Shown: one piece after another, positions 2 to 40,901 of the stretch
Numbering within the stretch: the stretch's first letter is position 1
How the letters are laid out: the number at the start of each line of letters is the position of its first letter
DNA from: Acetobacteraceae bacterium
Lineage (GTDB): Bacteria > Pseudomonadota > Alphaproteobacteria > Acetobacterales > Acetobacteraceae
NCBI GenBank assembly: GCA_965198895.1
Contig: OZ240676.1
Coordinates: 474,400 to 538,399 of the forward strand
Direction of reading: 5' to 3'
DNA length: 64,000 bases
The notes under the pieces: generated by a model
The model's input: only the letters and a program-made list of their open reading frames with translations
What the model was told of the DNA's origin: nothing
Databases searched by the model: none
Translations under genes and position numbers: made by a program

Positions 2-673
2 GAGAAATCGGCGCACTTGCCGACGACCGCCTTCGTCATCTTCCTGCAGAACCATGACCAGATCGGCAATCGCGCGCTTGGCGAGCGCCTGACCGTCCTC
101 GCCGATCCGCGTGCGCTTCGCGCTGCCCAGGGTTTGCTGCTGTTGTCGCCGTTCATTCCGCTGCTGTTCATGGGCGAGGAAGTGCAGAGCAAAACGCCAT
201 TTCTGTTCTTCACCGACCATGGCGACGAACTGGCTGAGCTCGTTCGCCAAGGGCGCCGCGAGGAGTTCAAACACTTCCCAGCCTTCAAGGATCCAAGCCG
301 CCGCGACGAGATCCCCGACCCGAACGCCAGGTCCACCTTTGAAGCGTCTGCACCCGATTTCAGCGGGAATGATAGCTTCATCCGCGGCCTGCTCACCTTG
401 CGGCGGGACCGGATCATGCCCGGCATCCCTGGCGCGCGCAGCCTGGGCTCGGAGGTCATCGGCAAGAGCGCACTCGCGGCGCATTGGCGTATGGGCAATG
501 GCGACGTGCTGGGGATCGCGATCAGCTTCGATGACCAGGCTGCCCTGCCAGTTCCGTCCGGCGCGTTACTGTTCGAGAGCGAACCCGGTGTTTGGGACCA
601 GGCGCAAACCGGCACATTGCGTGACCGCTCCTCCATCGCCTGGATCGAGCCCGCCGGGAGAGTTCAGGAGTGA
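2..673 (+). CDS. treZ: Malto-oligosyltrehalose trehalohydrolase (GH13), C-terminal part; gene starts before the window
   Basis: FLQNHDQIGNRALGERL and LLFMGEE...PFLFFTDH motifs of TreZ; upstream of malQ/treY. Confidence 0.92.
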   Translation, partial: EKSAHLPTTAFVIFLQNHDQIGNRALGERLTVLADPRALRAAQGLLLLSPFIPLLFMGEEVQSKTPFLFFTDHGDELAELVRQGRREEFKHFPAFKDPSRRDEIPDPNARSTFEASAPDFSGNDSFIRGLLTLRRDRIMPGIPGARSLGSEVIGKSALAAHWRMGNGDVLGIAISFDDQAALPVPSGALLFESEPGVWDQAQTGTLRDRSSIAWIEPAGRVQE

Positions 674-12712: not shown

Positions 12713-15190
12713 TTACGAGAACATCCGGCTGAGCAGCGAACGAAGCTTCTCGCGGCCGTACGGCTTGCTCAGGAACTCGTCGCACCACGACTCGCCCGCG
12801 GTGCCCTGGCCATTCTCCGCGAAGCCGGACGTGAGCAACACGCGAAGCCCGGGCGAGAGGCGCTTGGCCTCCGCGGCCAGGTCAGTGCCGCTCATCGGGG
12901 GTGGCAGCACGATATCACTGAACAGCAGGTCGAACGCGGGGTGCTGGCCGAGCGCCGCCAAGGCCGCCCCCGCCGTCTCGACCGGCTCCACGACACAGCC
13001 GAACTGTTGCAGCATTCGGGTCACGGCCTTGAGCACCGGCAGCTGGTCTTCAACCACCAGCACCCGCAACCCGTCCGCCTGCCACTGGCTCTTGAGCGGG
13101 ACCGTGTCGGTGCCGAGAGGGACGGCGGCTTTCAGGGGGAAGTACAGCGATACCGTCGTTCCGTGCCCTAATGCGCTTTCGATCCCGACATAGCCGCCCG
13201 ACTGGCGCGCGAAGCCATACACCATGCTCAGCCCGAGCCCGCTGCCGCGATGGGGCGCCTTCGTCGTGAAAAACGGCTCGAAGACACGGGTCAGCAGTTC
13301 CGGCGACATGCCGGTCCCCTCGTCGGACACCTCAAGCACGGCGTACTCGCCTTTCGCGATCTCGCCATCCTGGCAGACGATGCCGGGAGTGATCTCGCGC
13401 CGGTTTGCGCTGATCGTGATCTTGCCACCGTCCGGCATCGCATCGCGGGCATTGATGGCGAGGTTCATCAGGGCGTTCTCGAGTTGCGCGGGATCGGCGT
13501 GCAACTCGTCGGTCAAAGACCCCGGACGGATCTGGACGCTGTGCTGTTCCCCCAGCGTCCGGCCGAGCAGGGTCGACAATTCCCCCAGCATCTTGGCAAT
13601 ATCGATGTATTTCGGCCGCAACTGCGCCTGCAGCGCATAGGACAGCAGCGAGGACGTCAGCTCCGCCGCACGCTCGGCGGCGATCAGCGCAGGCTTGAGC
13701 AGCTCATGCGCCGAATGGCCGGGGTCGAGCTCGATGATCGCTTCCTCGATGTTGAGCGTCGTGACCGTCAGCAGGTTGTTGAAGTCATGCGCGATGCCAC
13801 CCGTCAGCTGACCGAGCGTCTTCAGCCGCTCCGAGCGAAGCAGCGCCTGCTCGGCTTTCTTGTGTTGCGTGATGTCCTGGCAAAACCCGAATGCGCCGTC
13901 GAGCGTCCCGTCCGCCCCCAGCACCGGGCGCGCCTCGATCCGGCAATACCGTACGTCATGCGTCCCGATCGGGATGGCGAATTCGATCTGCCGCGGTTCG
14001 CGCCGGTCGAACACGGCCTGCAGGCCAGCCTGAACGCTGTCGCGGTCCCTGGGCCGGATCACGGCCATCATTTCGGCAACGGTCGGCGGCTGATCACGTT
14101 TCGGCAAACCGAACATGGCATGCACGTCGCTCGACCAGAGCATCGTCTTCCGGTCGGCGGCCAGCCGCCACATTCCCATCCGCGCGATCCGGTGGGCTTC
14201 CATAAGCTCCTTCTCGGCCTCTTCGCTCTTGGTGACCTTGGCCGCAAGCAGCAGGTTTTCGGCCGCAATGCGCCGCGCATATTCCGCGATCTCCTGCGCC
14301 TCCTTGCGATCCGTGATGTCCCGCTGAACGGACACCCAGTGCGTATACCATCCCACCTCGTTCGCGACCGGCACGATGCTGATCTCGACCCAGAACTCGG
14401 TGCCGTCCTTGCGGCGGTTGAGCAGCTCGAGCTCGATCGGCTCCCACGCCACCAGGGCCGCACGCAGCTTGTCCAGCGCGGTACGATCGGTACGATTGGT
14501 CTGCAGGATGCGCGGGCTCTTGCCGATGATCTCGGCCTCGGTGTAGCCGGTCACCCTGGTGAACGCCGCGTTGCAATACAGAATGCGCGGCCCGGGCGCA
14601 TCGATCGGCTCGGCTTCCGTGATCAGAACGGCATCGTTCCCGTTCACGACGACAGATTCCAGCAGGCGGAGCCGTTCGATCTGCGCCTGCCCACCGGCTC
14701 GCTCGGCGAAAGCGGGTGCTGCTTCGGTGCTCATGGCACCGTTTCCGCCGAAAACCGGCATTGCAATCAGGTCTGCGAGCATGGCGGCATGGGCCTTGAC
14801 GACGAACTGCTTGGCTGCGCTCAGCGCCGGCCGCGGGCCGTGGTCGGCCACCACGAGCAGACCCTCGGGCGTATCCGAAACGCCATACAAGGGCGCAATT
14901 GCGATGAAGCGAGCCGCCTCGGCGACGGTCTCGACGGCATCCCCGGCCGGGAGCTCGATCATAACGAGGCTGTCGCGACCGAGTGCCAGGCTTTGAGCGC
15001 CGAGTAGGTGTGTGCGGACTGATGCAGCGATGCCGTCCATGGCCCCGAAAGAGGCTACGGAAGCCCAACCGCCATTGCTCGGGAAATATAGGCTAGTCCA
15101 CCGACAATCGATGGAATGATATAGACTTTGCAATACGACATGGATTTTGTCGTCCTGCGGAGTGCGTACCAAAGTACTCATGTCGTTCAT
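12713..15190 (-). CDS. Hybrid sensor histidine kinase/response regulator with two PAS/PAC domains (CckA-like architecture)
   Basis: PAS (NAAFTRVTGY...RKDGTEFW), H-box GGIAHDFNNLL, N-box NLAINARDAM, FEPFFTTK, GSGLGLS, receiver DLLFSDIVLP...KP. Confidence 0.92.
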   Translation of the reverse strand: MNDMSTLVRTPQDDKIHVVLQSLYHSIDCRWTSLYFPSNGGWASVASFGAMDGIAASVRTHLLGAQSLALGRDSLVMIELPAGDAVETVAEAARFIAIAPLYGVSDTPEGLLVVADHGPRPALSAAKQFVVKAHAAMLADLIAMPVFGGNGAMSTEAAPAFAERAGGQAQIERLRLLESVVVNGNDAVLITEAEPIDAPGPRILYCNAAFTRVTGYTEAEIIGKSPRILQTNRTDRTALDKLRAALVAWEPIELELLNRRKDGTEFWVEISIVPVANEVGWYTHWVSVQRDITDRKEAQEIAEYARRIAAENLLLAAKVTKSEEAEKELMEAHRIARMGMWRLAADRKTMLWSSDVHAMFGLPKRDQPPTVAEMMAVIRPRDRDSVQAGLQAVFDRREPRQIEFAIPIGTHDVRYCRIEARPVLGADGTLDGAFGFCQDITQHKKAEQALLRSERLKTLGQLTGGIAHDFNNLLTVTTLNIEEAIIELDPGHSAHELLKPALIAAERAAELTSSLLSYALQAQLRPKYIDIAKMLGELSTLLGRTLGEQHSVQIRPGSLTDELHADPAQLENALMNLAINARDAMPDGGKITISANRREITPGIVCQDGEIAKGEYAVLEVSDEGTGMSPELLTRVFEPFFTTKAPHRGSGLGLSMVYGFARQSGGYVGIESALGHGTTVSLYFPLKAAVPLGTDTVPLKSQWQADGLRVLVVEDQLPVLKAVTRMLQQFGCVVEPVETAGAALAALGQHPAFDLLFSDIVLPPPMSGTDLAAEAKRLSPGLRVLLTSGFAENGQGTAGESWCDEFLSKPYGREKLRSLLSRMFS

Positions 15191-15351
15191 CGCTGACCTA
15201 CCCTGAATCGACGCGCCGAATATTGGAAGCAGCTATCTAGGGTAACAGCCGCAGCGCCGCTGATATGCCAGCAAAGACCGTTTTTGCAACGTCTTGGTTT
15301 TGTAAGTTTGTGTCAGACTATGATTTATAACGTATGTCAGTATATTGATTG

Positions 15352-24990: not shown

Positions 24991-25281
24991 ATGGCCGAAA
25001 TGCTCGCAAGCTTCCCCAAGGCCGGCAGTGACGACTCGCTTTGGGCCGTGATCGCCTGGATGGGCACGCAGCGCCGCATCGCCGAGGTCTACCCATCCCG
25101 CGCCCGCGCCCTCGCCGACCGCGACTGGCGGGAGCAGGAGGTCAAAGCCTATGTCCACCTCCTGCGCGGCAACGACCAACCGGTACCGCGCTACCTGGTG
25201 CAGCCGGTCCGCCGCTCCGACCTCCCCCGCCGCTGGCGCCCGCTGCCCGCCCTCGGCTTCCTCCGCGGCCAATGGATCTAG
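24991..25281 (+). CDS. Hypothetical protein, 96 aa
   Basis: Clean ORF with host-like codons and GGAG SD; no recognised motif. Confidence 0.65.
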   Translation: MAEMLASFPKAGSDDSLWAVIAWMGTQRRIAEVYPSRARALADRDWREQEVKAYVHLLRGNDQPVPRYLVQPVRRSDLPRRWRPLPALGFLRGQWI

Positions 25282-26069: not shown

Positions 26070-27095
26070 TTAGCCGCCGTTATCCGCCGGGTGGTAGTGC
26101 AGCGTCACCACGACATCCGCCGGCTGCGCGAGCGTGCCCGGCGGGAACGGCGGAAGATGAGCATTTCGAAACACCGCTAACGCCGCCGCGTCGAGCACAC
26201 TCGACCCCGAGCCTTGCACCACTTCGATCGACGTGACCTGACCGTCCGCGGCAATGACGATGCGGACTTTAACGTTGCCTCCCTCATTGGTCTGCGACGC
26301 CTCCTTCGGATAGAAGGACCTCTGGTCCCACCACTGCTTCAGCTTCCCCATCCAGGCGGCACCGTTGTTCGCAGCGCTCGCGCGGTTCGCGGCCTCCTGC
26401 CCGTTTGTCGCCGGTTCAGCCGCCCCCTCCGGGTTGACCGGAGCGCGGCCGGCCGCAGACCGCGTGGCCACGCGGCGCGGCGCCGCTGGCGGGCGTGCCT
26501 GCGGGACCCGCGCGGCTGGCAGCGGGTGCGCTTGAGCCACCGGCGGCGGGGGCGGCGGCGGCGGTACAGGCACCATTGGGGGCGGTGGCGGCACAGGCAC
26601 CGGTGGTGGTGGCGGCGTTGGTGACGGCATCTCAGCTTCCTGATCCGGTGTGGACGGCGATGGCACAGGCTCCGGCGGCTGCACAGGCACTGGCACTGGC
26701 GGCGGCGGTATCTCCACTTGCTGAACGGGCGGGGGTGGTGGCGGCACGGGGAGCGGCGGGGGCTGTACCGGCACCGGCATCGGAGGCGGCATAGGCACTG
26801 GCGGGAGCGCCGGTGTTGCTGGCGGTGTCTCGGCCTGTTGAACCGGTGGGGTGGGAGCAATCGGCGCGGTGGTTGCTTCCGTAGGGGCGGACGGCTCCGG
26901 CGACGCTGCCGGCCCTGGCTCCGCAACAACGTCCACCGAGAACGGCTCCGAGGCACTTGCTGTTGGCTGCGGCGGCGGAAGCATCAGCAAGCAAAGGAAG
27001 AACGTCAGGTGCAGCGCCAGAGAGAGCAAAACCAGCCAGCCCAGCGTTCTGGGCCGGCACACGCGCGCGGCCAAACGTTGGTCGTTGCCTAGCAT
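26070..27095 (-). CDS. tonB: TonB-family energy transducer
   Basis: N-terminal TM with SLALH (SxxxH), long Pro-rich linker, C-terminal WW..YPKEAS..EGGNVKVRIVI..DG..SGSSVLDAAAL domain. Confidence 0.88.
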   Translation of the reverse strand: MLGNDQRLAARVCRPRTLGWLVLLSLALHLTFFLCLLMLPPPQPTASASEPFSVDVVAEPGPAASPEPSAPTEATTAPIAPTPPVQQAETPPATPALPPVPMPPPMPVPVQPPPLPVPPPPPPVQQVEIPPPPVPVPVQPPEPVPSPSTPDQEAEMPSPTPPPPPVPVPPPPPMVPVPPPPPPPPVAQAHPLPAARVPQARPPAAPRRVATRSAAGRAPVNPEGAAEPATNGQEAANRASAANNGAAWMGKLKQWWDQRSFYPKEASQTNEGGNVKVRIVIAADGQVTSIEVVQGSGSSVLDAAALAVFRNAHLPPFPPGTLAQPADVVVTLHYHPADNGG

Positions 27096-27166
27096 CGATC
27101 GAAGCGGACTGCGCGGCGTTTCACCATAGGATGCATCAACTCGAAACGATGTTGAATCGAGACATC

Positions 27167-27688
27167 TCAGCGCCGGCGCGGCACTTGCGTCGTAGGCAGC
27201 GGGACCGGAACGGGCCGAACCGTCGGCGCGGCGGTTCCGGTCGTGTTGCTGCCGGGGGCCCCGTCCGTCTGCTCCACCAGCAGGGCCACCTTGTTGAAGC
27301 CGCCTTGCTTGATGGTGCCCATCACCTCGATCATGCGGCCGTACGGCACGGTCTTGTCGCCGCGCACGAAGATGCGGCGGTCGGGGTCGTTCTGCGACTG
27401 CGCCTGCAGCTTGGCCACCAGGTCGCCGAGGTCCATCCCGTCATTGCCGAGATACATCTTGCTGTCGGACGCGACGCTGACGGTGATCGGGTCCTTGTCC
27501 GGCGTGATCGGCGATGCGCTGGCCTTGGGCAGGTCCACGTTCACGCTGGAGGTCATCAGCGGCGCCGTGATCATGAAAATCACCAGCAGCACCAGCATCA
27601 CGTCCACCATGGGAGTGACGTTGATCTCGGCCAGCGGGCGATACCGCCGGCCGCGCCCGTTGCCGTTATTTCCGATCTGTATCGCCAT
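27167..27688 (-). CDS. tolR: TolR/ExbD family protein
   Basis: AEINVTPMVDVMLVLL..FMITAP, VRGDKTVPYG...VMG. Confidence 0.92.
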   Translation of the reverse strand: MAIQIGNNGNGRGRRYRPLAEINVTPMVDVMLVLLVIFMITAPLMTSSVNVDLPKASASPITPDKDPITVSVASDSKMYLGNDGMDLGDLVAKLQAQSQNDPDRRIFVRGDKTVPYGRMIEVMGTIKQGGFNKVALLVEQTDGAPGSNTTGTAAPTVRPVPVPLPTTQVPRRR

Positions 27689-27692
27689 AACG

Positions 27693-28421
27693 TTAAACCC
27701 GTTCCTCGGACTGGCGGGACAGGATGGCACCGAACTCCGTGCCAAAGCCATTCAGCCGGTCGGCGAAACGCTGCAGGTTGGTGCTGATGGCGTTGTAGGC
27801 GAGCACCGCGGGAATGGCCGCGACCAGGCCGATCGCGGTGGCGAACAATGCCTCGGCGATGCCCGGCGCCACCACGGCCAGGCTGGTGTTCTTGCTGGCG
27901 GCGATGCCGGCGAACGAGTGCATGATGCCCCAGACCGTGCCGAACAGCCCGATGAACGGCGCGGTGGAGCCGACCGAGGCCAGGAAGATCATCCAGCGTT
28001 CCATCCGCTCCATCTCGCGGCTGACGGTAACGGTCATCGCGCGGTCCACCCGGTTCTGCACGCCGCCGCGGCTCATGTCCGCGCCGGCGATACGGGCGGA
28101 GCGCCGCCATTCCCCCATCGCCGCGCCAAACACGGCCGCGAACGGGTGGACAGGCTTGGCGCCCTCCTGGTCATACAGCTCGTCCAGGCTGCCGCCGGAC
28201 CAGAACCGGTCCTCGAACGCATTGGCCTGGCGGTTGGCGCGGCGCAGGGCGGCGATCTTCTCGAAGATGATCGCCCACACCCAGACGCTGGCCAGCAGCA
28301 GCAGCACCATGACGATCTTCACGACGATGTCCGCCTGGAGGAACAGCGTCAGGATCGACAGGTCCGCGCCAGGCGGGGCTGCGCCAGCGGCCAGGTTCGT
28401 CGCATTAACCGTTTGATCCAC
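27693..28421 (-). CDS. tolQ: TolQ/ExbB (MotA family) proton channel
   Basis: FLQADIVVKIVM, LASVGSTAPFIGLFGTVWGIM, APGIAEALFATAIGL. Confidence 0.93.
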   Translation of the reverse strand: MDQTVNATNLAAGAAPPGADLSILTLFLQADIVVKIVMVLLLLASVWVWAIIFEKIAALRRANRQANAFEDRFWSGGSLDELYDQEGAKPVHPFAAVFGAAMGEWRRSARIAGADMSRGGVQNRVDRAMTVTVSREMERMERWMIFLASVGSTAPFIGLFGTVWGIMHSFAGIAASKNTSLAVVAPGIAEALFATAIGLVAAIPAVLAYNAISTNLQRFADRLNGFGTEFGAILSRQSEERV

Positions 28422-28618: not shown

Positions 28619-29557
28619 TCAGGGTGGATCGCCGGGTGGACTTACCCCGGGCGTTACCGAGATCGAACTCCATGTAATGGCGGGCACGGTTTCCGTTGCA
28701 CACGTGAAATCGACCGTTCCGCCGAGATTGAGGTCGTGATCGCTCCTGGCATCGGCATCGTAGACGACAGTGAGGTTGCCACTGAGATGATTATCGCCCT
28801 CGGGCCATACCGTATATTGAGTATATCGACTTGTTCCGCTCCTGAGATGCTCGGCTCGGCCGGTCCACTGCACCATCTTGCCGACTTCGGTCACCGGAGA
28901 GAGGACAGGAAAGCCCGCTTCATAGAATTTGATCCATGGCGTTCCATCAGGCCGGCGGAAAAAGACGGCTTCGGCCGAAGTTCGCACGCCATACCAGGGA
29001 TGGTTCCTGATCCCTTGGTGCACGACCGTTCCACTACAGGTCCGTTGCAACATCGTCTCCAGAATCGGTGACGTGACCGGATCGTTCGCTATGGTGAACG
29101 GCCTCTGGGAGGGGACCGGCTTGTAACCGGCCGCCACCGGCTGATCGTGCCGGTGCGCCAGGACATACTGCAACGTGATGTCCAGGTCGGCTTCCGCGGC
29201 GCCGTCCGGGAACGGTCGCACGAACCCTCCGGTGAACACGGCGGATCCCGCCGCGTCGATCGAACTCGAACCCGAACTCTCCACCACAGTCACGGCCCAG
29301 ATCCTGCCGTCAGGAAGGATCGCCAAGTGGAGTTTGACGGTGCCACCCTCATCGTTGTTCGACGCGTGTCTGGGATAGTAGGCGTGCACGTCCCACCATG
29401 CCTGCAACTGCCGCATCAAGTCACGGTGACCCGCGGCAACCGGCTCCTCTGGGTTAGTGATGCTGAAGTCCTGGGCCAAAGCAGGCGCGTAGCCGGCGCC
29501 CACCGGGGTCATAACACAAGCCGCGGCAAGGGCGGCTGAAGCGACAGGCAACCGCAT
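28619..29557 (-). CDS. Secreted protein: signal peptide + TonB C-terminal domain + unrecognised Cys-bracketed domain
   Basis: Leader ending PALA|Q; WWDVHAYYP..ASNNDEGGTVKL..DG..SSGSSSIDAA aligns with the neighbouring TonB; C-terminal domain shared with the BlaR1-like protein. Confidence 0.82.
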   Translation of the reverse strand: MRLPVASAALAAACVMTPVGAGYAPALAQDFSITNPEEPVAAGHRDLMRQLQAWWDVHAYYPRHASNNDEGGTVKLHLAILPDGRIWAVTVVESSGSSSIDAAGSAVFTGGFVRPFPDGAAEADLDITLQYVLAHRHDQPVAAGYKPVPSQRPFTIANDPVTSPILETMLQRTCSGTVVHQGIRNHPWYGVRTSAEAVFFRRPDGTPWIKFYEAGFPVLSPVTEVGKMVQWTGRAEHLRSGTSRYTQYTVWPEGDNHLSGNLTVVYDADARSDHDLNLGGTVDFTCATETVPAITWSSISVTPGVSPPGDPP

Positions 29558-29607: not shown

Positions 29608-29637
29608 TGCTACAAAACGTAGCATTACACCTTGTCA
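29608..29637. promoter_or_regulatory. Putative BlaI operator(s) upstream of the TonB_C-domain gene
   Basis: Near-perfect palindrome TGCTACA-AAA-CGTAGCA (29608-29624) followed by a weaker TTACA-CCT-TGTCA. Confidence 0.7.
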
Positions 29638-29902
29638 CACATGAGTCGAGGGGTTTCTGGAGAGTTCGCATTCTTCTACGAAAAGTGCCTGCCTCGAAGA
29701 AAACTGCCTGCCTCGAACGTCTTTTCTCGTCCCGGAGGACGCGTTCTTTCGCAAGGTCTGGGCTGGATCGCCCTACCCGGTCTGACCGCTGAGGTGGCCG
29801 GGGACGGTCATTTCGAGACTCTGCCGAACGTGCGGCCTCTTGGGCAACCTTGCCGTTTAATGAACATGCAGGGCCAAGGACGACACGGCTCGCGGAACCC
29901 CG

Positions 29903-31633
29903 TCAGCTCCTCCGATCGAACAGGTGAACGCCAGCTTCCCCACAGGTGAGATCAATCGTCCCCTCCGGGCGCTGGGTGATGCCTGTAAGGTGGTTTGCGC
30001 CCTGCGCCAGCATTTTGAACGAGGTGTTGTTGCCGGCGGTAAACTCCACCTCCTTGCCGGTGACCTCTACCGGAAGGTTCAAGGGGTCGCGCGTGCCAAA
30101 GTAGATCTTCAGCCAGGGCCTGCCATCGGCCTCACGAAAAAATCGCGCCCGCAAAATGTTGAGATACCCCCAACCGTTGCCACTCCCCGCACCACCAACC
30201 GCTCCGGGAAGATAGACGCCGTCGCAGCTCTGCTGATCGATCGCCTCGAGCAGCGATGGTTCGTTGATGGGCGGGCGAGCTTCGCGTGAGGAGGAGGAGG
30301 CGTGCCTCACTCCGCCAGCAACATCAGCAGTGCTGGAATGGTTTGCTTCGTCGACGGCGCCTGCAGTTCTTCTGGTAAGGCTCACAGTCGCGATACGCGC
30401 GCGCGCGGTTTCGTTGCTCGGTGCGTCACTGGCCCGGTTGCGCATCTGTGGAGCGCGCGCCGGCGGCAAAGGATGCGCTATGCTGGCGGTTGATTGTGCC
30501 ATGGACCGCGCTGCCAGTTGCACGCCTGGAGATTGCTGCGGTGCTGCCGGAGCCGTTAGCGGTCCGGAAACTGGCCGGGCGGGGTCCTTGAGCTGCGGCG
30601 GTGGAGAGAGGGCGCCTACGACCGGCACAGGATTGGACACGAAGCCGTCCGTGAGAGCCAGGGCGGGCCGTATCCGCCCGATTGCGATCGAGGGCGGAGA
30701 CGCACCTAGGTCGAAGTCCGGGATCGCGGCCACGAACGAGATGATCGCCGCACCAACGACGAGCACCGATCGCTGAAGCCCGTTGACCGGCGGGACTCCC
30801 AAGCTGTCCGACAGCACGCGCTCGATGCGGTAATGAAGTGTGGACGCGCGTGCCATAGCCAAGCCCCGCAGCAACGGGCCTGACCGGCGCCCCATTTCAA
30901 GCAGAACCTCGGCATAAGCGGTGCGATCGCCCGTGACCCTCATCGCATGGTCGTCGCTGGCAAGTTCGGCAAGAGCAGCCAGCCGGCGATGGAGTAACCA
31001 TGACACGGGACTGAACCAGAACATCGCTCGATTCAGCTGCGATAGCACCAGCAACGCGAAATCCCCGCGTGCAACGTGGGCGCACTCATGCGCTACGACG
31101 GCCTGGCGCATAGCGGAGGGCCAGTCTACGACGTCGGGTGGCAGTAGGATGACATTGCCGACCGTCACTGGTGCCGAGACAACCTGGCTGATCCGGATAC
31201 GAGCATTTTGCGCGGCGTCTAAATGCAGGGGCGCTGCCTTGATCAGCAAGCGGAAAGAGAGTGCGACCCCCACCGTCAGCCGCAGCATCATAAGGCTGCT
31301 CACGAGGAGATAGGCAATAATCAACCAAAATCCTATCGCGGGCAGTTTACTGGAGTCTGCGGTCGATGGAGGTGCGGATACGACTGGAGCAGCTTGTTGC
31401 TGGAGATCGGCAATGCTGCTCAGCCATGCGGTGGGATGGCTGGAACCTATGGACAATCGCAGTGGAGTGGCCCACTGGAGCGCCGGCATGGCAAGGGAAG
31501 CCGCCAGGACGACTGTCCATGTAACAAGCAGTAGTTGTGCCCGGCGGATGCGAAGCAGCCATAGGCCGAGTTGCACGATGGTCGCCAGCAGGAGGGTGCG
31601 AAGTGCTGCTTCTCCCAATATGTCCAGCATCAC
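29903..31633 (-). CDS. BlaR1/MecR1-type M56 zinc metallopeptidase sensor with Pro/Ala-rich stalk and unrecognised C-terminal domain
   Basis: N-terminal TMs, AHECAH (HExxH), FWFSPVSWLL..LAELASD, last TM, no penicillin-binding domain; translationally coupled to blaI. Confidence 0.9.
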   Translation of the reverse strand: MMLDILGEAALRTLLLATIVQLGLWLLRIRRAQLLLVTWTVVLAASLAMPALQWATPLRLSIGSSHPTAWLSSIADLQQQAAPVVSAPPSTADSSKLPAIGFWLIIAYLLVSSLMMLRLTVGVALSFRLLIKAAPLHLDAAQNARIRISQVVSAPVTVGNVILLPPDVVDWPSAMRQAVVAHECAHVARGDFALLVLSQLNRAMFWFSPVSWLLHRRLAALAELASDDHAMRVTGDRTAYAEVLLEMGRRSGPLLRGLAMARASTLHYRIERVLSDSLGVPPVNGLQRSVLVVGAAIISFVAAIPDFDLGASPPSIAIGRIRPALALTDGFVSNPVPVVGALSPPPQLKDPARPVSGPLTAPAAPQQSPGVQLAARSMAQSTASIAHPLPPARAPQMRNRASDAPSNETARARIATVSLTRRTAGAVDEANHSSTADVAGGVRHASSSSREARPPINEPSLLEAIDQQSCDGVYLPGAVGGAGSGNGWGYLNILRARFFREADGRPWLKIYFGTRDPLNLPVEVTGKEVEFTAGNNTSFKMLAQGANHLTGITQRPEGTIDLTCGEAGVHLFDRRS

Positions 31634-32007
31634 TGTTCACCTTTGGCCGCGTCGATCCGCTTGGCCAGCAGCTTCAGCACGCGTGGGTCCAGCATGCGTG
31701 CGTCGGCCATGCCGACGAGTACGTCCTCTACCGAACCGTTGCAGAACCACCCCACGATGCGCTTCACAGCCCTAGCGGCGACATCCTGCCTCGCTTCGGC
31801 GGCGCGAAAGATGTAGGTGCGGCCTTCCACCCTGTGGCCAACGTATCCTTTATCTTCGAGCCGCCGCAGCACCGTCCGGACAGTCGACTCTTTCGGTTTG
31901 CGCTTCAACTGGGACCGTACCTGGTCGGCCGTGACTTCGCCGGCATCCCAGACGATCTGCATTACCTCGAGCTCAAGCTCGCCAAGGTCAGACATAGTCT
32001 CATTCAT
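31630..32007 (-). CDS. blaI: BlaI/MecI/CopY family transcriptional repressor
   Basis: LGELELEVMQIVW, STVRTVLRRLEDKGYV, GRTYIF, FCNGSVEDVL. Confidence 0.93.
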   Translation of the reverse strand: MNETMSDLGELELEVMQIVWDAGEVTADQVRSQLKRKPKESTVRTVLRRLEDKGYVGHRVEGRTYIFRAAEARQDVAARAVKRIVGWFCNGSVEDVLVGMADARMLDPRVLKLLAKRIDAAKGEQ

Positions 32008-32025
32008 GGAGTGTAAGCCGCCAAT

Positions 32026-32053
32026 GCTACATTATGTAACGCCAGCTACAAAA
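32026..32053. promoter_or_regulatory. Putative BlaI autoregulatory operator
   Basis: GCTACA-TTA-TGTAAC (32026-32040) plus half-site GCTACAAAA (32045-32053); TACA/TGTA core as in BlaI/CopY boxes. Confidence 0.7.
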
Positions 32054-32361
32054 GGGACGCAAGCGCAGGCAGCATCAATGTCTCACGTTCCACGGAGCCA
32101 GCGGTTAAGCCGGTCGAAGATAGGATCCCCGCCCGCTTCTGGGTGTCGCACCAAAATTGCTGCGCGGCGGGTATAGGGGCGCGAGCAGCCACCACACGGA
32201 ACGGCAAGGTTTGGTGGAGGCTGTGTGGAAACTCGGTGAGCGGATAATCCGACAGGGCCGTTTAGGTCCAGCCACAGACGCAGCAGTGCTGTTCGTTTGT
32301 GGGGACAATCGTGGGATCATCTTGAAGGCCAAGACAAAACTAAGGCAAATCCAGAGAGATA

Positions 32362-32451
32362 TGGCGGACAGGGTGGGATTCGAACCCACGTTACGCGTTA
32401 ACGCAAACACGCTTTCCAAGCGTGCGCCTTCAGCCACTCGGCCACCTGTCC
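32362..32451 (-). tRNA. tRNA-Ser(GGA)
   Basis: 90 nt; GGACAGG/CCTGTCC acceptor stem, anticodon loop TTGGAAA, long variable arm, GGTTCGAATCC T-loop, encoded CCA. Confidence 0.97.
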
Positions 32452-32481: not shown

Positions 32482-34287
32482 CTAGGCGTCCATCTTCAAG
32501 GCGGCCAGGAACGCGCTCTGCGGGATCTCGACCTTGCCGAACTGCCGCATGCGCTTCTTGCCCTCTTTCTGCTTCTCCAGCAGCTTGCGCTTACGGCTGA
32601 TGTCGCCGCCGTAGCACTTGGCGGTCACGTCCTTGCTCAGCGCGCCGATGGTCTCGCGGGCGATCACCCGGCCGCCGATCGCCGCCTGGATGGCGATCTT
32701 GAACAGCTGGCGGGGGATCAGGTCCTTCAGCTTGGCGCAGATCGCCCGGCCCCGCTGCTCGGCGGCACTGCGGTGGGCGATGAAGCTCAGCGCGTCCACC
32801 GGGTCCTGGTTCACCAGGATGGAAATGCGGACCAGGTCGCTCTCCTGGTAGTCGGCCATGGCGTAGTCGAAGCTGGCATAGCCGCGGCTGATCGACTTCA
32901 GGCGGTCGTAGAAGTCGAACACCACCTCGTTCAGCGGCAGGCGATACACCGCCATGGCGCGGTTGCCGACATAGGTCAGGTCCTGCTGCTGGCCACGGCG
33001 CTCGCTGCACAGCGTCAGCACGGAGCCGAGATACTCGTCGGGCACCATGATGGTCGCCTTGATCCAGGGCTCCTCCATGTGATCGATGTAGGTCGGATCG
33101 GGCATGTCCGCCGGGTTGTGCAGCTTCTCCACCGTGCCGTCGTTCCGGTAGATGTCGTACACCACCGAGGGCGCGGTCGCGATCAGGTCGAGGTCGAACT
33201 CGCGGCTGAGGCGCTCCTGGATGATCTCCAGGTGCAGCAGCCCCAAAAAGCCGCAGCGATAGCCGAAGCCCAGCGCCGCCGACGTCTCTGCCTCGTAGTG
33301 AAAACTGGCATCGTTCAGCCGCAGCTTGCCCAGGCTCTCGCGAAGCTTCTCGAAATCGTCGGCGTCGACCGGGAACAGGCCGCACCACACCACGGGGATG
33401 GAAGGCTTGAAGCCCGGCAGCGCCGCAGCGGCCGGGTTGCGGTCGTCGGTGACGGTATCGCCCACGTTGCAGTCGGCCACCGTCTTGATGGCGGCGGTGA
33501 TGTAGCCCATCTCGCCCGGCCCGAGGTCGTCGGTGGGGATCATCTTGGGGGTGAACACGCCGACCTGCTCCACCGGGTGGGCAGCGCCGTTGGACATCAT
33601 GCGGATCTTCATGCCGCGCTTCAGCCGCCCGTCGCGCACCCGCACCAGGATCACCACGCCCAGGTACTGGTCGTACCAGCTATCCACCAGTAGCGCGGTC
33701 AGCGGCTTGGTGGCATCACCGGTGGGCGGCGGCAGCCGGGTCACCAACGCCTCCAGCACGCCGCCGATGTTCAGCCCGGTCTTGGCGCTGATCATCACCG
33801 CGTCGTCGGCCGGGATGCCGATCACGTCCTCGATCTGCTGCTTCACCCGCTCCGGCTCGGCGGCCGGCAGGTCGATCTTGTTCAGCACGGGGACGATCTC
33901 GTGGTTGGCGTCCATCGCCTGGTAGACGTTGGCCAGCGTCTGCGCCTCCACGCCCTGGGAGGCATCCACCACCAGCAGCGAGCCTTCGCAGGCCGCCAGC
34001 GACCGGCTGACCTCGTAGGCGAAGTCCACGTGACCCGGCGTGTCCATCAGGTTCAGCTCGTAGGTCAGTCCGTCCTTGGCCTTGTAAGCCAGGCGGACGG
34101 TCTGCGCCTTGATAGTGATCCCGCGTTCTTTCTCCAGGTCCATGTTATCAAGGACTTGGGCGGTCATCTCGCGGTCGGTCAGCCCGCCGCAAGCCTGGAT
34201 CAGCCGGTCGGCCAGCGTGGATTTGCCGTGGTCGATGTGGGCGATGATGGAGAAGTTGCGGATCAAGGCGAGCGGCGTGTCGGTCAT
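32482..34287 (-). CDS. lepA: Elongation factor 4
   Basis: [53 protein letters not shown]. Confidence 0.98.
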
Positions 34288-34337
34288 GACACATGAGATA
34301 GTCGGAATCGGCCGGGATGTCAGCGTCGGCTTGCTGT

Positions 34338-36293
34338 TCACCTCACCTGCACGGAGGTCCCGTTGTTACAGAGCGAGCCGGCCGTCGCCACCGAGCAGGA
34401 CGGCACGCCGCCATAGCTCACGAAAGCGGGGGCCAACGCCGCCGTGAACGTGCCACAACCCGTGTTCAAGCCGCCCGTCCCGCTGCAACCGGTTGACGTG
34501 ACGGCGGGCGGCGATGTGTAGCCAGACCCGGGGTTGGTGACCTGGACGCTGCCGATGAACCAGCTCAGATGCGCGACGAACCCCGACCCGTTGGCCGCGG
34601 TGAAGGTAGCCGGATCCGCGGGCAGAACCGCGTACGACCCGGCGCCGCCGGCGTGGATCGCGGTCGGGTGGCCATCCGTCGCATTGACGGAGTCGATGAC
34701 CGCGTAGGCAGCGGTGCCAGCCGGCGTCAGGGTTCCGCCGGCGACGTTGAGGGCCTCGCCAGCAGTATACGAGCGGCCCGGCGACGTAACGGCCTGTGCA
34801 CCGGCCGAAGCCGTGCTCAACCCGAAGGTCGAGGGAGAAGCCGTCGCCGGTATGCCGGCGCCCGGGGGCGGTGCCAAAGTCAGGGTGGGGGGTGTCCAGA
34901 ACACGCCACCGTTGGTCGGCGTGATGCTGCCGACTCCGCCGGCGGGAGCGCCGATGGCGGTCGCCGACACGGACCCCGCGATGATCCCGGCCGCCCCGAG
35001 CGCACCGATGGAGCCCGACGCTGCGCTGAGCGCGCCCGTGGCGAGGGCAGAGCCCGTCGGGCCGGTCCCGTCATCGTTCAAGCCGATCGTGGTGTTCGCA
35101 CCCGACACCGAGACCATGGCGCCCGTGCAGGCGATCTCGTGATTGCCGGTGATCGTGCTGCCCGTCGCGGTGACCTGGATGTTCCCGGCGTAGCCGCTGC
35201 CGTGGCCGCAGTTGGTCAGGGTGTTGCCGGAAATGACGAGGCCGGTCGGGGTGCCGTAGACGGCCTGCACGAAGATGGCCGGCTGCACCTGCGAGCCATC
35301 CAGCATGTTGTCGGCCACGATGAAGCCGTTGCCGGGGGTGTTGAGGTAGATGCCGGGCATCGGTCCGCCAGGTGCCGTGACATACAGGTGGTTATTCGCG
35401 ATCGTCAGGTGCGTGAGGTTGCCGCCCGGCACCGCTTCGGCACCGATCGGGGCCCCAGCCGTGCCCGCGTAATAGATCGTATTGTTCTCGATCTGCACGT
35501 CGTCGATCGGCGTCGGGTTGTTCGCGATATCCTGGCCCGTGACCTGGATGCCCCAGGAGTTGATCGTGGGGTTGTCGGCGACCTCGGCGTAGTTGTTCAG
35601 GATGCGATGCCTGCCGCCGCCAAAGAAGTTGTCGTAGGCCGCATTGGTGACACCGTAGGCACGGTTGCCCGAAACTTCCGTATCGCTCGAGCCGATCATC
35701 GCCGTCAGGTTCGCCCCGCCGTAGATGACGCTGTTGCGGACCGAGACATGGCTCGCGAACCAGAACTGCACGGCCTTGCCGACAGCGCCGACCTGCCAGT
35801 TGGGATAGACGAAGGTGCAGCCTTCGACGCTGATGTCGTGGTCGGTCAGCACCCGAGCGGCATTCCCCGCGTTTTGCACCAGAGCCAGCGAATTGGCGTT
35901 GGGGCCGCCGGCGGTGATCGTGGCACCGTCGCACCGCATCGCCGTATTACTGTGCAAGAGGATGGCATTGTACACCGAGATGCCGTCGACGAGGTAATTT
36001 CCCCGCGTCAGCAACAGCGTGCCGCCCCCGGCCGGTATGGCAGCCGCCGCCGCGTTGATCGCCGCAGTGTCATCGGTGACGCCGTCGCCGACGGCGCCAA
36101 AATCCCGCACCGAGGGCATGTCACCCAGCTTGCTGGAGAGCTCCCGGGCGGCTGTCGCGCCCGATGGAATGATCGTTGCCGTGCCGAGGTTGGAGGGCGA
36201 CAGGCCGGGTGCTGGGCCGAGTTGGGCGTGGCCGATGACCGGCCAGACGCAAAGCGGACCAAGCAACAAGGCACGGATACAGGCATTCTTCAA
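34338..36293 (-). CDS. Secreted right-handed beta-helix protein (pectate_lyase_3/tailspike-like)
   Basis: Signal peptide; [22 protein letters not shown]; repeated I.NN/GN beta-helix turns; Gly/Thr-rich C-terminus with [11 protein letters not shown]. Confidence 0.8.
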
Positions 36294-37142: not shown

Positions 37143-39353
37143 TTATTCCGGCTTCTCGACCACGCCGGTGGCCTCGATGTCGACGGCCGGGCGCGGGGCG
37201 GGGGCGACGCCGCGCGCCTCGGCGTATTCTTTGTCCAACACCAACTCGAACATCAGCAGCGAGCGACCGGTCACCACGTACTCGGTCTCGAACTCGAAGC
37301 GCGTGCTCTCCGGGTCACCCTCCTGATTGGTGTCGATCAGGCACACCCAGGCGAGTCCGCCGGGTACCGCGGGCAGCTTGAACGGCACACCGTCGTGATA
37401 GGAGTTCACGATCACCAGGACCGTTGCATCCGCACCGCGCCGCCGGATGCCCGAGACCTGAGCACGGCCATCCAGCAGAACGCCGATGCACCGCGTGTTG
37501 GCGTCGTCCCAGGCGCCCTGGTCCATCTCCTCGCCGGTCGGCTTGACCCAGGTGACGTCCTTGATGCCGAGTTCCTCGTTCCACTCCGCCGTCAGGAAGC
37601 GCGAGCGGTGCAGGATCGGCAGGCGGCGGCGGAGCGCATTCACGCTGGCGACGAAGCGAACCAGACTGCGGCCCTTGTCGTCCAGGTTCCAGTTCAGCCA
37701 GCTGATCTCGTTGTCCTGGCAATAGGCATTGTTGTTGCCGCCCTGGGTGCGGCCGAACTCGTCGCCAGCGAGCATCATCGGCGTGCCACGCGATAGCAGC
37801 AGCGTCGCGAGCATGTTCTTGATCTGGCGTTCGCGTAGCCCGTTGATCAGCGGGTCGTCCGTCGCGCCTTCGACGCCGCAGTTCCAACTCTCGTTGTTGC
37901 TGTTGCCGTCGTTGTTGTCCTCGCCGTTTGCCTCGTTGTGCTTCTCGTTGTACGAGGCCCAGTCGTTGAGCGTGAACCCGTCATGGGCGGTCAGGAAGTT
38001 CACCGACGACCAGGTGGGCCGCCCGCGATGGTTGAAGAAGTCGCTGCTGCCGGTGAAGCGGGTGGCGAAATCCTTGATCTTGCCCTCGTCGCCCTTCCAG
38101 AAGGCGCGCATGTTGTCGCGATAGCGATCGTTCCACTCGGCCCAGCCCGGCGGGAAGCCACCCACCTGATAACCGCCCGGGCCGCAATCCCAAGGCTCGG
38201 CGATCATCTTCACCTGGCTCAGCACCGGGTCCTGGCCGACGGCGCGCAGGAAGCCGCTTTCCTGGTCGAAGCCATAGGTCTCGCGCGCCAGGATCGTGCC
38301 GAGGTCGAAGCGAAAGCCGTCGACATGCATCTCGGTGACCCAGTAGCGCAGACTGTCCATCACCATCTGGATTACGCGCGCATTGCTCAAATTGAGCGTG
38401 TTACCGGTGCCCGTGTCGTTGATGTAGTAGCGTTTCTGGTCCGGTAGCAGCCGGTAGTAGCTCGCATTGTCCACACCCTTGAAGCTGAGCGTCGGCCCCT
38501 TTTCGTTACCCTCGCAGGTGTGGTTGTAGACGACGTCCAGGATCACCTCGATCCCGGCCGCGTGGAAGCGGCTGACCATCTCCTTGAACTCGGAGAAGGC
38601 GAAGTCGGGAACGCTGGCATATCGGCGGCTGGGAGCGAAGAAAGCGAGGGTCGAATAGCCCCAATAGTTCACCAGCCCCTTGTCCACCAGGTAGCTGTCG
38701 TCGGCGAACATGTGGATCGGCAGAAGTTCGACGCTGGTGACACCCAAATTCTTGATGTACGAAACGACTTCGGGTGTCGCGAGTCCACGGAAGGTGCCGC
38801 GAAGCTCCTCCGGAACGGCTGGGTGGAGCTTGGTGAAGCCCTTCACGTGCGTCTCGTACATCACCGTCCGCTCCCAGGGCACGCGCGGCGAGCGGTCGTC
38901 GCCCCAGGTGAAGGCGGGGTCGATCACGCGGCATTTCGGCATGAACGGGGCGCTGTCGCGCTCGTCGAACGTCGTGTCCTCCTCGCCCATCACGTAGCCG
39001 AACAGCTCGGGCGCCCAGGTAATCTGGCCGACGACGCCCTTGGCGTACGGGTCCATCACCAGCTTGTTCGGGTTGAAGCGGTGCCCGTTCTCCGGCTCGT
39101 AGGGGCCGTGGACGCGATAACCGTAGACGGTCCCGGGCCGCGCCTCGGGCAGGAAGCCGTGCCAGATCTCGTTGGTGTATTCCGGCAGCGTGACGCGGCC
39201 GATCTCCGTCCCGCCGGTATCGTCGAAGATGCACAGTTCGACCTTGGTGGCGTGCGCGGAGAACAGGGCGAAATTCACCCCCAGCCCGGTCCAAGTGGCG
39301 CCCTGCGGAAACGGGCGGCCTTCTTCGACCCGGAAGCTGTTTGCGTTGCTCAT
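37143..39353 (-). CDS. glgX: Glycogen debranching enzyme (isoamylase, GH13)
   Basis: GVNFALFS, YETHVKGFT, NYWGY, DVVYNHT, VDGFRFDL, AEPWD, HDGFTL..YNEKHN; start MSNANSF. Confidence 0.96.
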   Translation of the reverse strand: MSNANSFRVEEGRPFPQGATWTGLGVNFALFSAHATKVELCIFDDTGGTEIGRVTLPEYTNEIWHGFLPEARPGTVYGYRVHGPYEPENGHRFNPNKLVMDPYAKGVVGQITWAPELFGYVMGEEDTTFDERDSAPFMPKCRVIDPAFTWGDDRSPRVPWERTVMYETHVKGFTKLHPAVPEELRGTFRGLATPEVVSYIKNLGVTSVELLPIHMFADDSYLVDKGLVNYWGYSTLAFFAPSRRYASVPDFAFSEFKEMVSRFHAAGIEVILDVVYNHTCEGNEKGPTLSFKGVDNASYYRLLPDQKRYYINDTGTGNTLNLSNARVIQMVMDSLRYWVTEMHVDGFRFDLGTILARETYGFDQESGFLRAVGQDPVLSQVKMIAEPWDCGPGGYQVGGFPPGWAEWNDRYRDNMRAFWKGDEGKIKDFATRFTGSSDFFNHRGRPTWSSVNFLTAHDGFTLNDWASYNEKHNEANGEDNNDGNSNNESWNCGVEGATDDPLINGLRERQIKNMLATLLLSRGTPMMLAGDEFGRTQGGNNNAYCQDNEISWLNWNLDDKGRSLVRFVASVNALRRRLPILHRSRFLTAEWNEELGIKDVTWVKPTGEEMDQGAWDDANTRCIGVLLDGRAQVSGIRRRGADATVLVIVNSYHDGVPFKLPAVPGGLAWVCLIDTNQEGDPESTRFEFETEYVVTGRSLLMFELVLDKEYAEARGVAPAPRPAVDIEATGVVEKPE

Positions 39354-39488
39354 TGAATGGTCCTGGGGAATTGGATGGCGGAGAGTGCCGCCCGTCCAAG
39401 CGTTTGACAGCGATTGTAGTTCCGCAACAGTTGGGGCAGTTCGCAACCGGGCGGGGCTGATGTAGGGTTCAGCGACGGAGGACGCCGG

Positions 39489-40901
39489 ATGCCAAGAACA
39501 ATGTTTGCCAAGCTGTGGGACAGCCACGTGGTCGCCGACCTGGGCGACGGCTGGGCCCTGCTGCACATCGACCGGCACCTGCTGCACGACCTTTCGGGCG
39601 CCCGCGCCATGGAGGAAGTGGAGCAGCGCGGCCTGCCGGTTCGCAATCCGGAACTGGCCTTCGCCACGCCGGACCACGCCGTGTCGAGCGCGCCGGGCCG
39701 CACCGCCGCAACGTTCGCGCCCGGAGAACACCTGCTGGTGGGGTTGCGCCGCCGCTCGGCCCAGTACGGCATCAAGTTCTTCGATCTGGGCGAGGTCGGC
39801 CAGGGCATCGTCCACGTCATGGCGCCCGAACTGGGTATCGTGCTGCCCGGCACCACGCTGATCTGCGGCGACAGCCACACCTGCACCAATGGCGGCGTGG
39901 GCGCCCTGGCGTTCGGCGTCGGCTCGTCCGAACTGGTGCATGCGCTCGCGACCCAAACGCTGCGCCAACGTCGCCCTCGCACCATGCGGGTGCGGTTCGA
40001 GGGCGCTATCGGACCGGGGGTCACCCCCAAGGACATGATCCTGCACCTGATCGGCCGCCTGGGCGCCGCGGCCGGGACCGGCTACGCCCTCGAATACGCC
40101 GGCCCGGCGGTGCGCGCCCTGCCCCTCGAGGGCCGGCTGACGCTGTGTAACCTCTCGATCGAACTCGGGGCCAAGATGGGGTTCGTGGCTCCCGACGACA
40201 CCACCTTCGACTACCTGCGCGGCCGCCGCTACGCCCCCCAGGGCGCCGCCTTCGACGCGGCCGTCGAACATTGGCGCACCCTGCCGACCGACGACGGCGC
40301 CGTATTCGACCGCGAGGAGGTGATCGACGCCGCCGCCATCGCCCCCACCGTCACCTGGGGCACCAGCCCCGAGCACGCCATCGGCATCGGCGGCCAAATC
40401 CCCGACCCGGCGGACGCTCCGGACGCCGAGCACCAGGCGTCATGGCGCGCCGCCCTCGACTACATGGCGCTGCAACCCGGCCGTTCGATCGCCGGCACGA
40501 AGGTCGATTGGGTGTTCGTCGGATCCTGCACCAACAGCCGCATCTCCGACCTGCGCGCCGCCGCCGCCATAGCCCGCGGCCGGCACGTGGCGAGCGGGGT
40601 GACCGCCTGGGTGGTGCCCGGCTCCGAAACCGTGAAGCGCCAGGCGGAGGCGGAGGGGCTGGACCAGGTGTTCCGCGACGCCGGGTTCGCATGGCGGGAG
40701 CCCGGCTGCAGCATGTGCGTGGCCGCCAATGGCGAGCGCGTGCCGCCGGGTGCGCGCTCGGTCTCCACCTCCAACCGCAACTTCGTGGGGCGGCAGGGTC
40801 CGGGCGCCCGGACCCATCTCGCCAGCCCGGCCATGGCCGTCGCGGCCGCCGTCACCGGCATGATCACCGACGTGAGGACGCTTATGGAGCCGGCGCTATG
40901 A
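39489..40901 (+). CDS. leuC: 3-isopropylmalate dehydratase large subunit-like (aconitase family; probably a paralogue)
   Basis: GIVHV, CGDSHTCT, GSCTNSRI, GCSMC, STSNRNFVGRQG. Confidence 0.85.
   Translation: MPRTMFAKLWDSHVVADLGDGWALLHIDRHLLHDLSGARAMEEVEQRGLPVRNPELAFATPDHAVSSAPGRTAATFAPGEHLLVGLRRRSAQYGIKFFDLGEVGQGIVHVMAPELGIVLPGTTLICGDSHTCTNGGVGALAFGVGSSELVHALATQTLRQRRPRTMRVRFEGAIGPGVTPKDMILHLIGRLGAAAGTGYALEYAGPAVRALPLEGRLTLCNLSIELGAKMGFVAPDDTTFDYLRGRRYAPQGAAFDAAVEHWRTLPTDDGAVFDREEVIDAAAIAPTVTWGTSPEHAIGIGGQIPDPADAPDAEHQASWRAALDYMALQPGRSIAGTKVDWVFVGSCTNSRISDLRAAAAIARGRHVASGVTAWVVPGSETVKRQAEAEGLDQVFRDAGFAWREPGCSMCVAANGERVPPGARSVSTSNRNFVGRQGPGARTHLASPAMAVAAAVTGMITDVRTLMEPAL

Follow-up and report, generated by a model that had tools for sequence, protein, structure and literature searches.

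A GCTAC-N5-GTAGC operator predicted for a non-canonical BlaI repressor at its own promoter and before a TonB-like gene in an Acetobacteraceae bacterium

Most BlaI/BlaR-type systems carry no β-lactam sensor, and almost nothing is known about the signals they perceive or the genes they control (PMC13492132; 2026 PvmSR preprint). Which genes does such a repressor control, and can its targets be read from the DNA? This question is raised by a locus in a moss-associated Acetobacteraceae bacterium, of which a stretch of 64 kb (hereafter the window) was analysed. The locus contains blaI, coding for a BlaI-type repressor, blaR, coding for an M56 membrane protease, and tonBC2, coding for a secreted protein with a TonB_C domain; all of its genes lie on the minus strand (Table 1). 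A preliminary description of this DNA had placed the same BlaI-type dyad upstream of blaI and of the downstream TonB_C gene. Both sites were found and both are conserved in relatives. The two 15-mers are very probably operators of the BlaI encoded at 31630-32007, which would repress by promoter occlusion and be relieved via BlaR. Comparison of the promoters also makes it likely that the shared operator defines a small regulon, and this blaI-tonBC2 regulon almost certainly senses something other than β-lactams.

The four strings quoted in the preliminary description lie exactly where it had placed them (Table 1). The distance from the end of the site to the ATG is 19 nt at blaI and 52 nt for the strong site at tonBC2. 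The second distance depends on the start codon: the longest mechanical open reading frame (ORF) of tonBC2 starts at 29671 and would put the operator inside the coding sequence. The true start is the ATG at 29557, because the homologues (120 of 120 among the matches listed) are all about 312 aa long, begin with MRL... and carry a signal peptide; the strong site therefore lies upstream of the gene. Within the 64 kb the pattern GCTACRNNNYGTARC is matched perfectly only at 29609-29623 and 32026-32040, and the looser family pattern GYTACNNNNNGTARC is perfect at the same two places only. Allowing at most one mismatch, GCTACRNNNYGTARC yields 6 strand-wise matches against 0.86 expected, a number that 0 of 100 shuffles reach. 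Five one-mismatch sites in the window include no convincing further member of the regulon: those at 5128, 5298 and 16296 lie inside coding regions and the GTA core of the site at 25190 is broken. The site GCTATCTAGGGTAAC at 15232-15246 is found 42 nt upstream of a gene for a PAS / histidine kinase / receiver hybrid (12713-15190, minus strand); with its broken TAC core and no -10 box of the family type it is a weak lead as a candidate third target. No TonB-dependent receptor was found among the window ORFs of at least 550 aa.

Conservation upstream of orthologues was the check named in the preliminary description. The comparison set comprised 98 related loci. A scan of a genome collection with BlaI gave 12 close loci, in Acetobacteraceae metagenome-assembled genomes with BlaI proteins 80-91% identical and in Xanthobacteraceae/other Alphaproteobacteria at about 65%, and a metagenome scan with a BlaI alignment gave 80 further loci with identities of 61-83%. 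The motif is strongly conserved in these loci: a GYTAC-N5-GTARC site precedes blaI in about 90 of 93 related loci, and an operator is present before tonBC2 in all ten loci in which this gene neighbours blaI-blaR. As G[CT][TG]AC-N5-GTA[GA]C the site lies 20-55 nt upstream of blaI in nearly all loci, and at least 8 of 10 positions are matched in 77 of 79 non-identical blaI promoters. Perfect GYTAC-N5-GTARC sites occur 111 times in 579 kb of related loci compared with 0.17 in dinucleotide shuffles, and 0 of them fall within mapped BlaI, BlaR or Ton coding hits.

The alignment of the 79 blaI promoters defines which positions matter. Both 5-bp half-sites have a high information content, as do the TAT that precedes them and, some 20 nt upstream, a TTG; it is low on the central 5 nt of the operator, which are nearly free. 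The flanking G and C of GCTAC/GTAGC are conserved as strongly as the core. Judged from these promoters, the conserved unit is GCTAC-N5-GTAGC. The preliminary description had instead taken TACA/TGTA cores as the motif, a reading that has to be given up: TACA-N3-TGTA can be ruled out as the recognition unit since the inner A and T vary freely and carry little information. It fits the window because the central bases there happen to start with A and end with T. The description was correct in giving the spacer as 3 nt instead of the classical 2 nt, that is, a spacing 1 bp wider, and TAC-N5-GTA is fixed across the clade. In the window's clade a cTTGC block is furthermore conserved at a fixed distance from the blaI operator.

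At tonBC2 the operator has been retained despite gene rearrangements (operator loci: the window, L001, L002, L003, L004, L008, L081, L085 and L161, where L numbers denote related loci). The operator is kept where tonB lies between blaR and tonBC2 (L008, L081) and equally where tonB-tonBC2 and blaI-blaR are divergent (L004, L085). The layout that recurs at this promoter has T(G/C)GACA and AATGCT 17 nt apart, and GCTAC-N5-GTAGC begins within the latter, the -10 box. Its -35 is conserved in eight listed operator-bearing promoters and in 4 of 4 promoters with a decayed operator, L085 also having TGGACA, and its -10 is arranged like the TAT-GCT -10 of many blaI promoters in the family. The decayed promoters constitute a natural control. 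Four loci (L162-L165) contain tonB-tonBC2 and have no blaIR within 8 kb. Here the promoter TGGACA-N17-AATGCT is kept about 60 nt upstream of tonBC2 and the TAC/GTA cores have decayed in 4 of 4 cases, for example to GCTGC-N5-GTCGC (GCTGCggccgGTCGC), or are wholly gone. As these loci keep -35 and -10 and lose the operator cores, the operator tracks the repressor and not the promoter.

The same loci bear on the idea that only the blaI site works, as an autoregulatory element, the tonBC2 site being a chance or relic palindrome and the Ton genes being under other control, for example by Fur or an extracytoplasmic function (ECF) sigma factor. This idea would accommodate tonBC2 promoters that work without an operator, as in L162-L165, and BlaI-family regulons are often confined to their own operon (PMC8457756). 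However, the tonBC2 site is perfect in the window, nine further loci retain it in the same register relative to the -10 box through changes of gene order, it has disappeared exactly from those loci that have no adjacent blaIR, and a perfect site is expected by chance far less than once per 64 kb. We therefore regard a tonBC2 site without function as very unlikely.

The genes exbB, exbD and tonB (26070-28421) lie directly downstream of tonBC2. Neither an operator nor a terminator-like hairpin was found in the 197-nt gap between tonBC2 and exbB, so read-through from the tonBC2 promoter into exbB-exbD-tonB is possible. A 219-nt contig of a moss metatranscriptome is identical to tonBC2, which is therefore expressed in nature. 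Some further observations concern this promoter region and its counterparts in relatives. In L085 tonB itself has a perfect operator (5851-5865) in the canonical TAT-GCTAC...GTAGC-GTTAT layout, and the tonBC2 site of this locus at about 4600 matches 9 of 10 positions (GCTACagcttGTCGC). The tonBC2 gene is tandemly duplicated in some relatives (L008 8214-10122, L163 8001-9943), in L008 with the operator at the first copy only. In the window, a tandem 19-nt direct repeat, GAAAAGTGCCTGCCTCGAA / GAAAACTGCCTGCCTCGAA, is located at 29680-29717, 31-68 nt upstream of the predicted tonBC2 -35; by eye it is absent from the orthologous intergenic regions of L001-L003, and it may have arisen by recent duplication or serve as an activator site.

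Is BlaI the protein that would bind these sites? Repressors of the Penicillinase_R family are about 120-140 aa long and combine a winged-helix N-terminal domain with a helical dimerisation domain at the C-terminus. The PF03965 match of BlaI covers residues 8-119 of 125, and a profile of the clade matches solved chains of BlaI, MecI and Mycobacterium tuberculosis BlaI over residues 1-119. The recognition helix ESTVRTVLRRL does not vary within the clade and is similar to KTIRTLITRL of MecI and BlaI. At its own promoter the gene carries a presumed autoregulatory dyad with TAC/GTA core (GTTAC-N5-GTAGC). The mecA operator, to which MecI binds, has the same half-site, CTAC (PMC1935004), and the TAC/GTA core is shared with bla and cop operators (PMC1935004; PMC7253601). 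Classical operators are spaced TAC-N4-GTA, as in OPmecA (GACTACATTTGTAGTA) and OPblaZ / OP1blaP (PMC1935004 Table 1). This TACA-NN-TGTA spacing is found neither in the window nor in the clade; it defines the classical subgroup, not the protein family. The motif at the blaI promoter in about 90 contexts, the CTAC and TAC/GTA cores and the recognition helix together point to BlaI as the binder of the predicted operators. Metal sensing of the CopY type was considered and is ruled out, as the protein scores 62 bits with TIGR02698 (CopY_TcrY) against a cut-off of 122 and has no C-terminal CxC, its single invariant Cys being that of WFCNGS.

Palindromes of this size fit many helix-turn-helix families and binding by BlaI is a prediction here, so the motif could also belong to a different, unlinked dimeric regulator that controls the whole locus and hence is found at blaI promoters. 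We consider such a regulator highly improbable: the motif follows blaI through about 90 loci with differing neighbours, its core is the TAC/GTA core of the characterised BlaI, MecI and CopY operators, and its presence at tonBC2 tracks the presence of blaIR.

The preliminary description had moreover proposed a paired layout of a strong and a weak site at both promoters. Matches were scored around 102 non-redundant perfect sites at each offset between -30 and +30. The offsets of ±15 alone differ from the rest: at +15, 39 of the 102 sites reach at least 7 of 10 matches (mean 5.1), at -15 at least 7 positions are matched at 10 sites, and all other offsets have a mean of about 2.5 with almost no site at 7. 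Owing to this enrichment at ±15 only, abutting 15-bp tandems can be considered a hallmark of the family, and many blaI promoters, as well as target promoters in distant relatives, contain two or even three abutting sites. The weak tonBC2 site conforms to this register: it abuts the strong operator at exactly -15, within the -35/-10 spacer, and matches 8 of 10 positions of the relaxed pattern in the window. The same position reads GCTAC-AAGCT-GTAAT in L161 (9/10) and GCCAC-AAGCT-GTAAT in L001 (8/10), and only 5/10 positions match in L081. In L161 and L001 it is the downstream site that is imperfect (GTGGC), and in L003 and L081 the upstream site decays. It is plausible that the weak element serves as a second operator within the -35/-10 spacer, one that is labile in evolution; conservation alone cannot decide this, because its conserved right half doubles as part of the -10 box.

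The paired layout is plausible for tonBC2 and falls for blaI. Next to the blaI operator, the abutting position (+15) is degenerate in the window's clade (ATTGGCGGCTTACAC, 2/10). The nearby GCTACAAAA is ruled out as a second blaI operator, as it is separated by a 4-nt gap, out of the 15-bp register and not conserved: L001 and L003-L008 have no GTAGC half-site at its position, and L002 has one that abuts the operator, in another register. From these alignments the half-site at blaI is probably not an operator. The preliminary description had also pointed out that the 9-mer GCTACAAAA occurs at both promoters. It is found twice in the window against 0.08 expected, a post hoc statistic for a sequence whose second copy is not conserved in relatives, and we regard the sharing of the 9-mer as accidental, one copy belonging to a full site and the other being a stray half-site.

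These data also bear on the question whether each promoter would need a pair of dyads (four protomers), the weak elements at both promoters then being essential second operators. There is a precedent in Clostridium thermocellum, where BlaI_0696 requires two dyads and its recognition sequence is an inverted repeat of GTCTAT with a distance of 5 nt (PMC8457756); as BlaI_0696 has both, wider spacing and paired dyads are not unprecedented in the family. The enrichment of abutting 15-mers at exactly ±15 bp and the weak tonBC2 site, in register and near-consensus in L161 and L001, argue in the same direction. On the other hand, the abutting position at blaI is degenerate in the window's clade and GCTACAAAA is offset and unconserved. 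Locus L081 has lost the weak site of tonBC2, and the half of this site that is conserved falls on the -10 box. An obligatory pair at each promoter is in our view possible but rather doubtful.

We favour repression by BlaI through the two 15-mers, and the position of the sites suggests how it would operate. A BlaI dimer is expected to bind GCTAC-N5-GTAGC. The blaI site lies over the -10 box, so blaI-blaR would be autorepressed. The strong tonBC2 site extends from within the -10 box over the expected transcription start, and the abutting weaker site fills the -35/-10 spacer, where it may take up a second dimer; RNA polymerase would be excluded either way. Since the sites overlap or abut conserved promoter boxes, repression by occlusion is implied. 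By analogy with BlaR1/MecR1, a periplasmic signal would activate the BlaR protease, BlaI would be inactivated in a presumed proteolytic relay, and both promoters would open. This should raise the level of secreted TonBC2 and, by read-through, probably that of ExbB-ExbD-TonB, provided that these genes are co-transcribed.

Several points weigh against this scheme. A simple sigma-70 consensus scan matched no promoter, and for this reason the -35 and -10 boxes are to be taken as weak matches inferred from conservation only. Mapping of transcript ends from one moss metatranscriptome was too sparse, with a single tonBC2 contig. The scissile N101-F102 of Staphylococcus aureus BlaI aligns with an invariant G-M (VLVG-M) here; the VLVG-M segment is under strong constraint though the N-F dipeptide is not conserved. 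Finally, many of the related loci are close relatives and the counts given above overstate their independence, although BlaI identity still spans 61% to 91%.

What might the system sense? BlaR has the HECAH zinc-binding motif of M56 proteases (HExxH) between membrane helices. An AlphaFold2 model (54-sequence alignment, mean predicted local distance difference test score of 69) begins with three membrane helices at the N-terminus, followed by the M56 domain and a fourth membrane helix; a disordered linker of about 140 residues then leads to a C-terminal all-beta domain at residues 461-566. The predicted helices (2-26, 32-55, 98-132 and 285-303) flank the protease domain in a BlaR1-like topology. 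No match to PF00905, the penicillin-binding domain of transpeptidase fold, was found in BlaR, and the model blaR1_generic gives 26 bits against a cut-off of 400. Without a transpeptidase sensor this is a non-canonical BlaR and not a β-lactam sensor. Its sensor is predicted by AlphaFold2 to be a disulfide-containing periplasmic beta-barrel of about 105 aa.

TonBC2 is predicted to consist of a signal peptide, a TonB C-terminal domain fold at about aa 42-133 and an 8-stranded barrel at about aa 165-290 (AlphaFold2). It does not conform to the definition of a TonB energy transducer, as its signal peptide looks cleavable, a Pro-rich spacer is absent and an extra barrel is present at the C-terminus; the separate tonB (26070-27095) does, with a membrane anchor, a proline-rich spacer and a C-terminal TonB_C. 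In Foldseek searches the TonB part of TonBC2 matched solved TonB C-terminal domains, and for the barrel only weak lipocalin-, avidin- or designed-barrel matches were obtained (E of at least 0.016). The BlaR sensor (aa 455-576, window 29906-30271) and the TonBC2 barrel (aa 160-312, window 28622-29080) are homologous to each other: hhalign gives a probability of 99.3% and an E of 9e-21 with two conserved Cys aligned, and tblastn an E of about 1e-8. No Pfam model was found for the shared barrel domain, and it is rare, with 47 representative clusters among 1.84 billion proteins. The paralogy of sensor and regulated protein is the most interesting point of this locus and suggests a route to finding the signal. 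We tentatively propose, as a possibility still well short of probable, that the two barrels bind the same periplasmic ligand or each other, and that the locus is a substrate-induced, Ton-dependent uptake module switched by repressor proteolysis and not by Fur or an ECF sigma / anti-sigma pair. As a soluble protein, TonBC2 would then dock on the TonB box of a transporter in the outer membrane, and would either shuttle ligand or feed back on the sensor. If this were true, the module would represent a split version of the widespread M56-TonB_C fusion proteins.

Compared with BlaI-BlaR1 / MecI-MecR1 of S. aureus and Bacillus licheniformis, the locus has the same pairing of a Penicillinase_R repressor gene with a gene for an M56 HExxH membrane protease, and the same use of a TAC/GTA dyad at its own and at one target promoter, overlapping promoter elements. 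It differs in spacing (TAC-N5-GTA in contrast to TAC-N4-GTA), in gene order, the repressor gene coming first and overlapping the protease gene as in most non-canonical systems, in a BlaR devoid of a transpeptidase-type sensor, in the replacement of the N-F cleavage dipeptide by G-M, and in its target, a TonB-like gene in place of a β-lactamase or PBP2a. The locus is thus a member of the Penicillinase_R and M56 families that lacks the defining features of the β-lactam-sensing subgroup in sensor domain, spacing and target. CopY/CopR repressors, whose cop box TACANNTGTA was refined to RNYKACANNTGTMRNY, resemble the present system in protein fold, in the TAC/GTA core, in having two operators per promoter and in the importance of flanks beyond the 10-bp core for binding (PMC7253601). 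Here, however, the CxC metal site is absent, the spacing is 1 bp wider and the repressor is partnered by a protease and not metal-responsive.

The C. thermocellum proteins BlaI_0696 and BlaI_1845, characterized by DNA affinity purification sequencing and electrophoretic mobility shift assays (PMC8457756), are likewise non-canonical BlaI proteins with inverted repeats, a 5-nt spacer and ordered pairs of dyads, and their regulons are small, comprising their own operon and one or two others. Their half-site is GTCTAT, in contrast to GCTAC here, and they act in Gram-positive hosts on other targets; the present system is a prediction. Most members of the family are non-canonical BlaIR systems, and among M56 architectures the fusion with TonB_C ranks second in frequency (PMC13492132; PMC10350073). 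The M. tuberculosis / M. abscessus BlaIR and Clostridioides difficile CenIR systems (PMC13492132) and Pseudomonas aeruginosa PvmSR, an atypical Gram-negative system described in 2026 (bioRxiv 10.64898/2026.08.03.742534), also possess an M56 protease without transpeptidase domain, and no role in β-lactam resistance is expected. The accessible parts of these two sources mention no operator for CenIR (PMC13492132) or PvmSR (bioRxiv 10.64898/2026.08.03.742534). In contrast to these atypical systems, the sensor here is a folded beta-barrel with a paralogue in the regulated gene, and operator and targets can be read from comparative genomics. Unlike in the M56-TonB_C fusions (e.g. TonB1/TonB10 of Bacteroides thetaiotaomicron), TonB_C is unfused and part of a separate secreted protein that shares the barrel domain with the protease; the link to TonB_C is made by the operator instead of by fusion. 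Literature searches yielded no account of this clade or its operator, nor of a Ton locus controlled by BlaI.

The clade offers, from sequence alone, a defined operator, GCTAC-N5-GTAGC, often in abutting 15-bp tandems, and a promoter layout that predicts occlusion. Targets can be read genome by genome. Here they are the Ton motor and a secreted TonB-like protein; in relatives they are DUF1800 proteins or an S9 peptidase. The regulon, and with it the link between a protease-coupled repressor and TonB-dependent uptake, thereby becomes directly testable. In distant relatives (BlaI 62-66% identical) the same operator is found before DUF1800 genes, a Peptidase_S9 gene or genes for small secreted proteins, often as 2-3 abutting 15-mers (L130 3217, L142 4272, L011 7947/7962, L131 6680, L086 8300 and others), and the BlaR proteins have other C-terminal domains, e.g. 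PF11954. The clade therefore re-uses one operator for different outputs.

Table 1. Genes, predicted promoter boxes and operator sites of the blaI-tonBC2 locus (window coordinates)
Feature	Position	Strand	Description
blaI	31630-32007	-	125-aa winged-helix repressor, Penicillinase_R; PF03965 E 8.6e-28; ATG at 32007
blaR	29903-31633	-	576 aa, M56 metalloprotease HECAH; Pfam PF05569 only, E 7.6e-17
tonBC2	28619-29557	-	312 aa; signal peptide, TonB_C (PF03544, E 2.2e-9) and barrel
exbB	27693-28421	-	Pfam MotA_ExbB
exbD	27167-27751	-	Pfam ExbD
tonB, full-length	26070-27095	-	Pfam TonB_C
blaI operator	32026-32040		Gene strand GTTAC-ATAAT-GTAGC; GCTACATTATGTAAC; overlaps predicted -10 (TACATA / CATAAT)
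blaI-blaR predicted -35	32057-32062	-	TTGCGT on gene strand
blaI-side lone half-site	32045-32053		GCTACAAAA; gene strand TTTTGTAGC
Strong tonBC2 operator	29609-29623		Gene strand GCTAC-GTTTT-GTAGC; within TGCTACAAAACGTAGCA at 29608-29624
Weak upstream tonBC2 site	29624-29638		Gene strand GTGAC-AAGGT-GTAAT = TTACA-CCT-TGTCA (29625-29637)
tonBC2 predicted -35	29644-29649	-	TCGACT (relatives TGGACA)
tonBC2 predicted -10	29621-29626	-	AATGCT; straddles junction of weak and strong site

The start of blaR overlaps the stop of blaI by 4 nt. Elsewhere in the window, genes of glycogen/trehalose metabolism are located at 670-5444 and 37143-40433 and have no relation to the operator finding. They include a 1024-aa ORF (2370-5444) that resembles maltooligosyl-trehalose synthase by eye only, without a domain search, and genes for a 4-alpha-glucanotransferase and an alpha-amylase / CBM48 enzyme. 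Closer to blaI, some 320 nt upstream of its operator, is a tRNA-Ser(GGA) gene (32362-32451, minus strand) with lepA (32482-34341) beyond it; the blaI promoter region is therefore bounded by the tRNA gene.

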